A stretch of 64,000 nucleotides of DNA from Peptococcia bacterium (GCA_050951565.1 JBMNJH010000012.1:63141-127140), one strand, 5' to 3'. Positions 45,647 to 64,000 are shown, counted from the first letter of the stretch. Numbers and translations are program-made. The notes: generated by a model from the letters alone, not told the origin.

Positions 45647-48600
45647 ATGATTAAGAATAAAAGTCTTGTTTTCCTCTTAATTCTTTCGCTTTTATTAATA
45701 TCGTTTGGGATCTATTTTGCCATCCATTCATTTAACAGCACCAAAAGTGTTTTTATGCAGGATGGCTATGTTTTGGAGTGCCAAGATGATCTGGCTGGCG
45801 CGGAAGGAAAAAGCATTCAGTACCATTTTCGAGGGGGAACGACTTACCGGGCCAGGTTCCCTCAAAAAATTGTTTTTAATGACACCCAAAACCAGCGGAT
45901 TATCACTGCTGAGCATGGTTTCCTTCATTATGCCGACGGTTCGTTTGGGGCCTTCAAAAACGGGGTTGTATTGAACCTTTCCGCTTTAAATGCTGACTTA
46001 ATTAATTATTACAATGTTTCTCCTGATTCCATCATGCAAAACAACGGGAGTAGTTATTCCCTTGACCATATGGGGACACCGATCAACTTTAAACAGTTCC
46101 TGTGGAAATTAAACCAGGACAAATATCTGCTGGCTGCCGATACGATCAAGCTGCATTTTTTAGAGGATGATGTCCGGGAATTTAAAGACTATCTCGAAGT
46201 AAGCTACATTGATGAAAATGTGGTGCAACTGGCCAATAACGAGGCTGTTCTCCAGACCATTGCCACGGATTGTTTTGTGGAACTGAACGACGGAGTGACC
46301 ATCAATTTTAGCGAAAAGACGATTAAGCAACACGATGTTACGAAATTAACCCTGGCCCAGATGGTTGTGGATGCCGAAGAAAATATTGAGGTGACCCCTT
46401 TAAAAATGAAGGAGGTCGCTGCAATTAAGCTGCCCAAAATTACCACCGTCGACGGTGAAGACGGGGAAGAAGGGGAAACAGGAGAGCCCGGCGAACCCGG
46501 CGAACCGGGCGAGGTTGGCGAAACCGGTGAAACCGGCGAAACCGGAGAACAGGGCCAAACCGGGAGTAAAGGAAGGGGCGGCAGTAAGGGGAAAGACGGC
46601 GCTGCCGGTGAGACCGTCGGCGTCGGAGGAGGAGATGGAGACTCCGTTGATCAGGTTAAATTACCTGTTTTTGAATTGTCCGAATGGAAGGTAACCGCTT
46701 CCAGCGCCAGCGGCGTTGTCTTTATTAAGGACGACGATAATTTGCTGGTGGGAGACTCCGTTAACCTGAAGCTGGTGGAAACCGGCACCAACAAAGTGGT
46801 GTACGGTCCCGAGCCGTATTCGGGTCTGATTTTCAATTTCCATTTGGACGGGCTTAATTCCGGTACCGAGTACCGTTTGGTCATCAGTGCGGATTATGCC
46901 GTAAATAACAGGGAATATACCAGGGATTTCATTAATAAGGTGTTTGTGGCGGATACCCTCGGCTTATCTGTGGAAAAGGAATACGCCGCCGAGACGGAAC
47001 TTGCTTTTGTGGTGATGAAGCAAGCTTCTTCCACTGTGAGTATCGCCAGTTTACAGCTTTATAACGAAGATGGGACTTCGCACAGCGTGGAAAATGTTAA
47101 TTTCGCCGGCGATCGGCAAACGGTCCTATTTAGAAACCTGACGCCCAATACCAGGTATCTGGTTCAGCTTACCGACGTGAAAAGCAGTGACGGTATTGAA
47201 ATGGCTACTTATGGGCAAAGGCAGGAATACAGCACTTTAAAGACGCCGCCCACGATTGGCGATCCCAAAGTAATCGTCAACAAAAAGAACGGTTCCTTTG
47301 AGATGCAGGTTGGCGCTGTGACGGACCTCCACCATGGCATCACCAAATTCCGTTATGAGATCTATGCTGCGCCGGTTGTTACCGGTGTCACACCGGTGAA
47401 AACGCTGAATTCCGCCACTAAGGGGAGCGTGGCCGCTTTTGTGGACAACTTGCTCTTGCGGCGGAACGAGGATTATCAGGTGAAAGTGGTTGCCGAGTTC
47501 TTTGATAATGAAAAGACGGTAGAGTTCGAAAGCAACCTGTCGGATACATTCCGCATGGAAGGGGTCAGCTTCCCGACGGTGAGATTCGAGGCCGAAGAAA
47601 TCACTTTCGAGCGGGTCCGGGGAATTATCTACATTGACGCCCAGTCGGCAGAACTGGTGGTTAATTCAAACAAACCGCTGACCATCATGTACGAAAACTC
47701 CCTCAACGTAGCTAAAACCCTGCCGCCGATTACCGATCTGGCCCAGTTCGCGGAGACCGCTACTACTTATGCCATCCCCTTTGTGGTCAATAACTTACGA
47801 CAGAACGATACATATGTGGTCTCCCTGCATGGTTGCGTGGACCTGCTTGACGGGAATCCGGAAGAACAAGTGGTCATCGGAAGCTTTATCTTCGACACCC
47901 CGTCCAGCAATCCCTTACAAGCCGTCTTTATTGAGAATTCCACTGACGGCAGTTCGGCGTTCGATGTTGATTTCCAGTTACAGAGCCCGCCCATGATCAA
48001 CAGCGAACTGGAAGCCAACACCTTGTCCCATATGACCCTGAAGTTGTATTCCGGGGTTACGACCGAAGAAAGAAACCTGGTTGCCACCGTGCCTTACCAT
48101 GACACTAATCCGGAACCGTACGAGAGCGTCCTGAGAGAAACCTTCTATGACCAGATGGCCAAGATTACGGAAACAACCTTCGGGCTGCGTCCCGAACAGT
48201 TGGAAAACCCTGTTTATACCATTCAGGTGACCGGGGCATCTGACTATACGGATTATCAAAACGAAATCACGATTATTAACAATATAATTACGGTTAACAG
48301 ATCCGAATCTGCGCCGCCGTTACCGCCGGTGAATGACGCTTTTGAAGTGATCACGATTATTAACGGCAATGCCGAACAATTTGGCGTGGAAAAAGTTGAT
48401 GGATTGAGAGATGACACGATCATTGGGTATGCCGTGAAGGCGAAGTTTGACAGTGATCTGGCCAATAACTTTACCTATACCATGTATTCACCGGCCGAAT
48501 ACCATCAATACAACAGTGATCCCGACATTACCGCAGGCGCGCAGCAGGTTGGATCTGCCTATACCTTGCCGGTTGTCGGCGGCAAGATTCCGGAACTGGT

Positions 48601-62488: not shown

Positions 62489-64000
62489 ATTTATTGTGCT
62501 GAATGATATTGATGTGACGTCAGGGCCGCTTCTTGGGTCGGCTGACTCTTTTAACGGGGAGTTGGATTTTCAGGGTTATACGCTGCATAATAGCAAGGGT
62601 ACTTACTTATTTCGCATTTGGGTAAAAACGGGTATCATTAAAAATATGGTACTTGATGTGACGATCCCGTATACTGATCCGATGCGTTACCGGGCTTTAT
62701 TGCTTATGTTTCCAGGGGACGGATGGAGAATATTATGGTGAACGTAAAAGGTTGTACCGAGTTATCTGCATAATGACTGGGGACTTTTTTGTCCATAACA
62801 GTGCGACCGGCGTGATTGAAAACTTTGTGGTCAATCTGGAAAGTCCGCTTTATGTTTGGAGAAATTTGGGTGTGTACGCATATAACAGCGGGATGGTACG
62901 AAACGGTTATGTGTATGGTAGCGATATTGAACTGCCTGATATTGAGGTGGATGGGGGCTATACTGCCTCTAATTTTGGCGGGATTGTGGGCAGAAACGAA
63001 ACAGCCGGACGGGTGGAAAATGTCTTTTCTCTGGTCAATATCCGTACCGGCACACTGGTCACGCCTAGCAAGAACAATTTTGGCATGATTGTGCGGCGTA
63101 ACAATGGGACAGTGAAGGGTGCTTTTACCACGGGAGAGGTCTATTTCGGAGGGGCAAATGACCTGCGCTATGGCCCGGCGGTAGGCCGTCAGGGCGGGAT
63201 GCTGCAGACTGATGCTTACTACATTTCGGAAAGACTCTACCTATACGAATACATATAACGCGAAAGTAAGCAAGGAAACGCTCTATGATCCATTGTGGCA
63301 CAAGGCCGTCCTGGGGGATATGTTTGACACGGAGACACTGGTCTTAATGGGTTATTACCCCCAATTAAAGCTGCCCGATTGTATGCCGGCCCAGCCTTAT
63401 CTGCCCTTGCCGGAGTTAAATGTTGCCGATGCGGTGGATCTGGCCAGCGTAATGGTCGAAGAGCAGTACGAGGATTACGCTATCGCCCGGTTTACCTTTA
63501 ATAACCCCTATGGCTATACGATTAAGAGCGTGGGGGTCGAATACCTCAATGCCACCATTATCCCGGACAGCCAGGAGGATAAAGATGGACTCACCCGTGT
63601 GCTGGTGCGCTTGGATAACCCCACTAAGTTTTATTCCAGCTACAATGTCCTTTATTTCGGATACGGTGTTTCCGCTAGCAGTCCAACGACTTTGCGCCAC
63701 TATCAAAAAGGAGAACGTCTGGTCAATGCAGAGTTTTTTAAGCCAATTCGCACAATTGAAGATTGGGCATCTATAGAGGATAGCTTAGAGCAGAACTATC
63801 GTTTGAAAGAGGATTTGGATTTTAATAATACTCCGCCGCAATTAATCCGCATTGGGGAAAATGATGCTAATCAATTTACCGGCAAACTGGATGGCGGTAT
63901 TTATGACAAAAACATGAAATGTATTGGGATGCATACTATTCGTAATCTTGATTTATCCATTGGCTTAGGAGGAGTGATCACTAATTTAAAAGGTTCGGTT
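62463..64000 (+). pseudogene. GLUG-type repeat (beta-helix-like) surface-protein coding region broken by at least 4 frame changes; 3' end open at the window edge
   Basis: Coding-like translation moves from frame 3 (62463-62741) to frame 2 (62678-62773), frame 1 (62662-63258) and frame 2 (63185-64000, no stop). Motifs: SFNGELDFQGYTLHN, GFIAYVSRGRMENIMV, NFGGIVGRNETAGRVENVF, QFTGKLDGG..HTIRNLDL, GLGGVITNL. Confidence 0.65.

Follow-up and report, generated by a model that had tools for sequence, protein, structure and literature searches.

An F-type ATPase gene cluster with a carboxylate-less c subunit among genes of giant surface proteins in Clostridia

F-type ATPases are textbook ion-coupled machines, and a gene cluster of a Peptococcia bacterium (GCA_050951565.1 JBMNJH010000012.1:63141-127140) raises the question of what such an enzyme does when its genes stand among those of giant surface proteins and its rotor subunit lacks the ion-binding carboxylate. 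The window analysed is this whole stretch of 64,000 nucleotides (nt), in which the cluster begins at position 45647 and runs to position 64000 and beyond. All large open reading frames (ORFs) called from 45647 to the window end lie on the plus strand, in the order giant 1, p598, c, stalk candidate, alpha, gamma, beta, a small protein, a protein with five transmembrane (TM) helices (5-TM), p242 and giant 2. The cluster probably represents a non-bioenergetic, ATP-hydrolysing derivative of the F-type enzyme dedicated to a surface complex. A dedicated ATP-driven motor or assembly engine had been proposed in the initial annotation of this DNA; the proposal is partly supported: three of the refuting tests named with it, on the c-subunit site, the separate clade and the gene linkage, left it standing, and the shared anchor module and the 5-TM fusion described below add to it, while its a-like label was lost, its epsilon subunit is unproven and the output of the machine is inferred.

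The gene of the c subunit (53033-53278, plus strand) encodes a protein of 81 amino acids (aa), which matches PF00137 with 36.7 bits against a cut-off of 24 and aligns to 25 canonical c sequences with an hhalign value of 98.5%. The Gly-rich TM1 and the cytoplasmic RNP loop are kept, and the ion-binding position, the register of which was set by counting 21 residues from the conserved loop motif, is occupied by Met in the window. Neither Asp nor Glu occurs at this position in any of 52 distinct family sequences (0/52), while Glu was found in all 17 canonical controls (17/17) in the same register. The family residues are Thr, Ser, Ala, Leu, Met or Val (52/52), with Thr or Ser in 37 sequences, and no Asp or Glu was found anywhere in TM2 of the 52 sequences. 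The absence of a carboxylate from TM2 had been noted initially for the window, and a conserved Glu or Asp in TM2 had been named beforehand as a refuting result; the absence is borne out both there and in the 52 relatives. Every characterised rotor ring of the F-, N-, V- and A-type uses Glu or Asp. Between clostridial families, c is 72-90% identical, the loop and the Gly-rich TM1 being highly conserved. Conservation of TM1 and the loop, together with loss of the carboxylate, therefore points to a rotor-ring subunit which is under selection, but not for ion binding, and ring formation is still expected of the protein. The C-terminal 'NP' motif of c is also present in the canonical c subunits of Ilyobacter and chloroplasts and was dropped as a family-specific mark.

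No recognisable subunit a with the essential Arg was found in the cluster. The gene in its place encodes the 5-TM membrane protein (57878-58462, plus strand; 194 aa), for which a topology with the N-terminus outside and the C-terminus inside is predicted from charges. Comparison with 23 canonical a subunits gave an hhalign value of 0.3%, no a-like fold was found, and no invariant Arg is present in the 5-TM family. The AlphaFold2 (AF2) model of a fused homologue, built on a shallow set of 26 sequences (word searches for the 5-TM protein and its fusion gave 7 and 19 proteins), has a predicted local distance difference test (pLDDT) score of 50-85 in the 5-TM part, which matches generic helical bundles only. 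This protein had been labelled a-like, but similarity to subunit a is lacking in both sequence and fold; it should not be named subunit a, and appears to be a fast-evolving protein that sits in subunit a's place.

The F1 head is represented by the genes of alpha (54057-55388; 441-443 aa, likely start ATG 54063; PF00006, 246 bits), gamma (55385-56176; 263 aa; PF00231, 81.5 bits against a cut-off of 39.9) and beta (56173-57528; 451 aa; PF00006, 210 bits), all on the plus strand. Alpha, beta, gamma and c exceed the Pfam cut-offs for PF00006, PF00006, PF00231 and PF00137, respectively, and gamma aligns to 59 canonical reference sequences with an hhalign value of 99.2%; by these profile matches, the four proteins are true F-type homologues. 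Alpha contains the motifs GDKKTGKT and SVSRLGG, and the catalytic motifs of beta, including EELSEEN, are intact. All catalytic and nucleotide motifs listed for the two subunits in the initial annotation are present in the window, and the catalytic motifs are kept in family relatives: among independent metagenome relatives of beta, Walker A was found in 37/38, GERxREG in 37/38 and Walker B in 38/38 sequences, and both Walker A and the Arg-finger motif are present in 50/50 relatives of alpha. With catalytic residues kept family-wide, the head is predicted to be catalytically competent. Residues 5-417 of alpha align to residues 6-419 of the 502-residue PS3 alpha, and the alignments to solved alphas as a whole stop at about residue 419-437 of 502. 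By this alignment about 65 C-terminal residues are absent from alpha, close to the 60 or so estimated initially, and the N-terminal region is kept. The N-terminal region of alpha is the part that binds delta.

Alpha, beta, gamma and c all score below the NCBIfam cut-offs for canonical, N-type and mycoplasma F1-like families. Against the curated equivalog cut-offs, alpha reached 427 bits versus 554 (NF009884), beta 459.8 versus 462.85 (TIGR01039), gamma 48.6 versus 194.45 (TIGR01146) and c 45.3 versus 71. The best PDB matches of beta are canonical F1 betas (about 370-380 bits), while the G1 beta of Mycoplasma mobile gave 312 bits. Family alpha sequences form a single clade, sister to all 49 canonical bacterial sequences sampled across phyla, as do family beta sequences with respect to all 72, and neither set is nested within housekeeping F-type sequences; this result was obtained by neighbour-joining, as a distance tree without N-type and mycoplasma sequences in which long-branch effects are possible. 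The mean distance between family and canonical sequences is 1.20 for alpha and 1.06 for beta, versus 0.43 and 0.37 within the canonical set, which is about threefold.

The stator side is represented by the b/delta-like stalk candidate (53290-54066, plus strand; 256-258 aa). No sequence-family match was obtained for this protein. Its AF2 model, with pLDDT of 92.6 from an alignment of 130 sequences, starts with a membrane and stalk helix (residues 2-73), which a linker joins to a helical bundle (101-203), and ends in a small beta domain (208-252). The protein thus models confidently with a b-delta architecture of membrane helix, stalk and OSCP/delta-like bundle, which would fit the b/delta-like label given to it initially. 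The stalk family comprises 377 clusters at 50% identity (E <= 1e-3), all of about 240-275 aa. The gene in the epsilon position (57562-57903, plus strand) is a 113-aa ORF, with a likely start at ATG 57637 that gives 88 aa, and a small protein of 79-105 aa is conserved at this place, with 41 such ORFs located behind beta. Searches of Pfam, NCBIfam and PDB profiles gave no match for it, and ATP-synt_DE_N was absent in a Pfam scan of 31 members. By hhalign it aligns collinearly to canonical epsilon, in a plausible register, at E 0.03-0.09, the values over local, global and low-mact modes being 0.03-0.37; significance is not reached, and the epsilon-like label used before is not confirmed. If homologous, the protein would fit the beta-sandwich domain of canonical epsilon in size, and C-terminal helices are lacking.

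The cluster was found at >=98% identity in six independent assemblies, two of which are metagenome-assembled genomes (MAGs) from NCBI. Many relatives of beta with 67-90% identity are recorded, under the names of Peptococcia, Lachnospiraceae, Oscillospiraceae, Clostridiales Family XIII and, in one case, a MAG of Coriobacteriales, while canonical betas are only 41-47% identical to cluster beta among the matches listed in the genome-collection scan; the canonical loci of that scan also served as the reference set. A metagenome scan seeded with the c loop gave 80 loci, not all of them independent species, from gut, rumen, sludge and bioreactor. The series giant, 598-like, c, stalk, alpha, gamma, beta, small protein, 5-TM, 242-like, giant is repeated throughout, in dozens of loci. 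A giant ORF stands upstream of c in 41 of the 42 loci with at least 4.5 kb of upstream sequence, and a gene of the 5-TM, 242-like or giant 2 type stands downstream in 29 of the 34 loci with at least 8 kb of downstream sequence; most of the downstream exceptions are moved-gamma variants, missed by the range used for counting. The same layout was found in named MAGs of Peptococcaceae, Lachnospiraceae, Oscillospiraceae and Family XIII, so that the linkage between ATPase and giants is conserved in other genomes, both in these MAGs of at least four clostridial families and in the 41/42 loci. Between clostridial families, identity is 66-69% for alpha and beta and 72-90% for c, versus about 24% for the giants; by these values the motor is strongly conserved, while the giants diverge.

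Several variants of the locus were recorded in the scan. A sub-family of low G+C content (low-GC; loci L141, L155, L161, L162 and L140) has the order c, stalk, alpha, beta, small protein, 5-TM, gamma. SipW/TasA-type signal peptides (GATFAYF[ST]A) or pilin-like N-termini were found downstream in L140 (16249-19965), L155 (17846-19954) and L145 (17035-20235), and these neighbours may be further surface-fibre components. The 242-like proteins of L128, L131 and L169 are 470-488 aa long and carry a Lys/Glu-rich extension of at least 200 aa on the cytoplasmic side, before the membrane helix.

Four genes for anchored surface proteins, all on the plus strand, flank the ATPase genes. Giant 1 (45647-51100; 1817 aa; PF01391 34.8 bits, fn3 33.4 bits) consists of an N-terminal membrane helix, an anchor module, 18 G-x-y triplets (aa 270-323; 46454-46615) and FN3/Ig-like repeats. 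The p598 protein (51127-52923; 598 aa) consists of an N-terminal membrane helix, an anchor module, 20 GGX-type triplets (aa 244-303; 51856-52035), a beta domain and an acidic low-complexity tail; among near-identical strains its length varies from 590 to 604 aa, with insertions and deletions (indels) in the Gly-rich and acidic low-complexity parts. The p242 protein (58485-59213; 242 aa) is a minimal anchor module, composed of a membrane helix and an all-beta domain of about 190 aa. Giant 2 (59228-64000 in the window) begins with a membrane helix and an anchor module, after which a linker rich in Glu and Pro leads to FN3-like repeats; its distal part contains GLUG. The N-terminal signal-anchor segment of each anchored protein is hydrophobic and preceded by positive charges. 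Type IV pilins were considered and dropped, as a prepilin N-terminus of the G/FTLxE type is absent from the anchored proteins.

Giant 1, p598 and giant 2 share the anchor module over their first 200-280 residues, and p242 shares it over its whole length (hhalign 82-98%). The p598 protein aligns to the giant 1 N-terminus with 98.2%, and p242 to the N-terminus of each of the other three with 92-96%. The beta domain of the module has pLDDT of 85-90 in the AF2 model of the fused homologue, and no significant PDB fold match was found for the module. Several lineages encode the 5-TM and 242-like proteins as a single polypeptide of 402-405 aa, which agrees with the charge-predicted topology, since the 5-TM part would end on the inside, where the anchor module's in-to-out helix would begin. 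The collagen-like runs of giant 1 and p598 are matched in length across loci, with triplet counts (giant 1/p598) of 16/19, 18/20, 20/22, 23/25, 24/26, 26/26 and 28/29; the correlation is r = 0.99 for 8 pairs, of which two come from near-identical strains. Both proteins are without a run of at least 8 triplets in 16 loci, with one sub-threshold run of 5 triplets in one partner in 4. Since the run lengths co-vary, giant 1 and p598 probably share a collagen-like stalk, which would probably be trimeric. Together, the shared anchor module, the 5-TM fusion and the matched collagen-like runs are seen as the link between the membrane sector and the surface proteins.

A mechanism can be proposed in which gamma, together with the c-ring and the epsilon-position protein, would be turned by ATP hydrolysis, while the stalk protein, the anchor modules and the 5-TM protein would make up the stator. 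Since there is no ion path, torque or cyclic strain would be passed to the anchored proteins. These would cross the cell wall on collagen-like or Pro/Glu-rich spacers, bearing the FN3-like and GLUG arrays, and as its output the machine might move, tension, extend or assemble a surface fibril. A bolder proposal, tentative and rather doubtful at present, is that of a novel organelle of walled anaerobic Firmicutes, in which F1 rotates the c-ring without its carboxylate against a stator extended beyond the membrane by a ring of anchor modules, cranking or spinning a stalk that bears FN3 and GLUG domains and would be collagen-like in a subset of lineages only. If true, it would be a second independent F1-powered surface motor beside those of mycoplasmas and the first rotor ring kept for mechanics and not for ion transport.

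Several points weigh against a surface-dedicated motor. The evidence for the link between the ATPase and the giants is genomic, namely linkage and fusion; the assignment of the small protein after beta as epsilon is unproven; and giants with ordinary N-terminal signal-anchors would need no special export machine. To our knowledge, there is no precedent for a c-ring rotating without subunit a and an ion path. Locus L010, attributed to the Coriobacteriales MAG (11366-15968), contains the upstream giants and the ATPase genes, while the genes of the 5-TM protein, the 242-like protein and giant 2 are absent. Unrelated genes follow the ATPase block in L010, which may be a reduced variant or reflect a contig or binning issue.

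Other explanations of the cluster were weighed against this reading. An export or assembly ATPase like FliI/FliJ/FliH might unfold, thread or insert the giants, with the c-ring and the 5-TM protein acting as a gate or platform and not as a rotor. FliI-FliJ-FliH is similar to the cluster as an F1-related ATPase with gamma-like and b/delta-like partners which serves an extracellular appendage instead of ion coupling, and the candidate substrates are always co-encoded and very large (1817 and about 3200 aa). Alpha and beta do match the FliI/SctN models, but their best scores of 177-210 bits fall well short of the cut-offs (380-620) and are under half of the 395-460 bits reached with F1 models; moreover, FliI/SctN is a homohexamer without c, whereas the cluster encodes a heteromeric head of distinct alpha and beta subunits, with gamma and c. 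The signal-anchor segments of all four anchored proteins fit Sec/YidC insertion, we know of no precedent for a polypeptide passing through a c-ring, and an export function is considered unlikely. It is also quite unlikely that the ATPase has a transport or regulatory task of its own and is merely co-located or co-regulated with the surface genes. Such a reading would suit the evidence of interaction, which is genomic with none of it directly physical, as well as the absence of downstream anchored genes from L010 and the variants with a moved gamma and other neighbours. It is opposed by the giants that flank both sides in nearly all loci despite their identity of about 24% between families, by the fusion of the 5-TM gene, which lies inside the ATPase block, to the anchor module in several lineages, and by the start/stop overlaps and short gaps throughout the block.

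That the cluster encodes a true ion-translocating F-type enzyme, with an ion site other than a carboxylate and a subunit a that has diverged strongly, is very improbable. The F-type subunit complement is full by position, several databases label the proteins as F0F1 ATP synthase subunits, and Thr or Ser stands at the former carboxylate position in 37/52 c sequences; yet TM2 of c is free of Asp and Glu in all 52, the 5-TM protein is without an invariant Arg and without an a-like profile or fold and is absent from L010, and all subunits fall under the curated equivalog cut-offs. A decaying, functionless duplicate of the atp operon is hardly credible. The shortened alpha and small subunit, the lost carboxylate and the frameshifted giant 2 of the window strain could be taken as signs of decay, but the stalk protein by itself forms hundreds of clusters at 50% identity, the catalytic residues are near-invariant, c is strongly conserved across clostridial families (72-90%), and the ORFs are intact in six independent assemblies of the species.

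Among known systems, the closest are those of mycoplasmas. The Type 3 F1-like X0 ATPase (MSC_0618/0619) is needed for the MIB-MIP antibody-cleaving surface system, and the Type 2 F1-like ATPase is thought to drive the gliding legs; these systems were described as being without equivalent elsewhere (PMC3369863; bioRxiv 10.64898/2025.12.04.692339). The clostridial cluster appears to work most like these F1-like X0 ATPases and, because their cut-offs were missed, is not a member of either the Type 2 or the Type 3 family. Similar to Type 3, it encodes an extra divergent F1 head (alpha, beta, gamma and a small protein, which is epsilon-type in mycoplasmas) with non-Fo membrane proteins beside surface-protein genes, and ATP hydrolysis serves a surface function, proposed in the case of the cluster, and not bioenergetics. 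The mycoplasma Type 3 ATPase was reportedly recovered together with MIB-MIP by pull-down or cross-linking. Unlike Type 3, the cluster belongs to walled Clostridia and keeps c, the b/delta-like stalk and the alpha N-terminal region, all three of which are absent from the mycoplasma system. Scores with the MSC_0618 model for beta (402.6 bits versus 570) and the MSC_0619 model for alpha (304.1 versus 520) are below the cut-offs. Type 3 is a seven-gene set with a 12-TM protein beside MIB-MIP, whereas the cluster has the 5-TM protein and the collagen/FN3/GLUG giants.

The Type 2 G1-ATPase of M. mobile (MMOB1660/1670; PDB 9io5) is similar to the cluster in being F1-derived and believed to drive giant surface 'leg' proteins, and its 9io5 chains are at a comparable distance (alpha 283, beta 312 bits). 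Its models MMOB1660 and MMOB1670 gave 381.8 bits versus 600 and 384.8 versus 850, respectively. The cluster beta of 451 aa is without an N-terminal extension; on the 784-aa G1 beta, its match spans residues 302-753. In M. mobile the motor lies in the cytoplasm as a dimeric chain together with phosphoglycerate kinase, and a c-ring is absent, in contrast to the cluster with its c and membrane-anchored stalk.

Canonical F1Fo (atpIBEFHAGDC) shares with the cluster homologous alpha, beta, gamma and c, intact catalytic residues and, by the model, a delta/OSCP-like bundle, and the cluster's core gene order (c, stalk, alpha, gamma, beta, small subunit) parallels atpE-F-H-A-G-D-C. Unlike canonical F1Fo, the cluster is without the c carboxylate and without subunit a, and one 256-aa stalk candidate stands in place of b and delta; alpha is about 65 aa shorter, the small subunit has about 88 aa, and the block is set among giant surface-protein genes. 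The N-ATPase (atpDCQRBEFAG) is similar as a second, laterally spreading F-type operon beside the housekeeping enzyme, a feature of N-ATPases. In N-ATPases the c carboxylate is kept, as is subunit a, and AtpQ and AtpR are present. Their gene order differs from that of the cluster, and the scores with their models are below the cut-offs (TIGR03305, 419 versus 752; TIGR03324, 342 versus 750.5; TIGR03323, 25.8 versus 282; TIGR03322, 18.5 versus 131).

A c subunit without the essential Glu/Asp was flagged in 20 candidate F/N-ATPases of the ProAD database, with no neighbourhood, family or function given (PMC11738941). Some of them may belong to the cluster's family, although the ProAD survey required a recognisable subunit a, which is absent from the cluster. 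No prior description of the clostridial system was found in the literature searched, in which the mycoplasma work and the ProAD remark (PMC11738941) are the nearest. The shared anchor module, the 5-TM fusion, the matched collagen-like runs and the hypervariability of giant 2 are new in this analysis. The cluster would place an exception to ion coupling in ordinary walled Clostridia of gut, rumen and digester, where it is common (377 stalk clusters), and would represent an intermediate different from the mycoplasma one, with the rotor ring and stalk kept and the ion site and subunit a lost. A conserved carboxylate-less c-ring would surprise specialists in rotary ATPases; it raises the questions of how F1 torque is transferred to surface proteins and of what use a c-ring is without ions. 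The family also offers a functional handle on many giant 'hypothetical' surface proteins of gut anaerobes, including a new anchor domain for which PDB gave no fold match.

The gene of giant 2 is interrupted in the window. Its ORF of 1086 aa stops at 62488, the frame changes at about 62806 and about 63230, and at least three frame disruptions are present between about 62450 and 63230, while reading continues past the window end. Near-identical strains contain an intact gene, encoding 3209-3210 aa in L001-L003 and L006 and 3204 aa in L005; in L004 giant 2 is also split, at points different from those of the window copy. The initial annotation had listed a giant of at least 1086 aa; the giant itself is present, but this length is a strain-specific truncation of a gene of about 3200 aa. 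The GLUG region assigned to it is confirmed by a GLUG motif in the intact homologue (L001, 35.1 bits). The interruption may reflect real decay or phase variation, or else misassembly of a region that is repetitive and varies between strains.

Identity between strains is at least 99.8% over the ATPase genes and most of the cluster and 97.9-99.4% in the p598 gene. From about 62100 (about aa 950), giant 2 falls to 46-90% identity, in mosaic blocks of 300 nt with indels (L001, L003 and L005, 13056-21356). The distal two-thirds of giant 2 form a strain-level hypervariable zone, a pattern that suggests recombination or diversifying selection on an exposed tip. A diversity-generating retroelement was considered as the source of variation and dropped, the zone spanning kilobases with indels and mosaic blocks.

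The beginning of the cluster is placed at 45647 because the upstream neighbour, purL, lies on the opposite strand, with a gap of 385 nt to giant 1. A candidate operon promoter, the best promoter-like site of the region in a consensus scan, was found on the plus strand at 45511-45539, 108 nt 5' of giant 1; it is a sigma-70-like TAGACA-17-TATAAT site that agrees with the consensus at 11/12 positions and is a consensus match only. ATGA start/stop overlaps are present at 54063, 55385 and 56173, and an overlap of 26 nt at 57878; the widest intergenic gap, between 52923 and 53033, is 109 nt. The plus-strand layout, gene order, overlaps and gaps of at most 110 nt described initially agree with these ORF coordinates, as do most of the protein sizes, with the exceptions of the anchored protein, which has 242 and not 243 aa, and the 1086-aa ORF, which is a truncated gene. 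No terminator-like match was found in the intergenic gaps of the cluster in a sequence scan. With one good promoter match, short gaps and no intergenic terminator match, the layout appears operon-like.

The remaining genes of the window are ordinary chromosomal ones, including gltX, feoB, htpG and genes of P-type ATPases and pyruvate carboxylase. No second rotary ATPase was found among the window genes, which cover 64 kb of the genome. Copper amine oxidase N-terminal-like domains (PF07833) are encoded in three genes at 9543-13799, unrelated to the cluster, and adjoin the gene of a 971-aa PQQ/beta-propeller-like protein (13760-16675), which makes another envelope-type block. One tRNA gene, at 5468-5540, is the sole Rfam match in the window.

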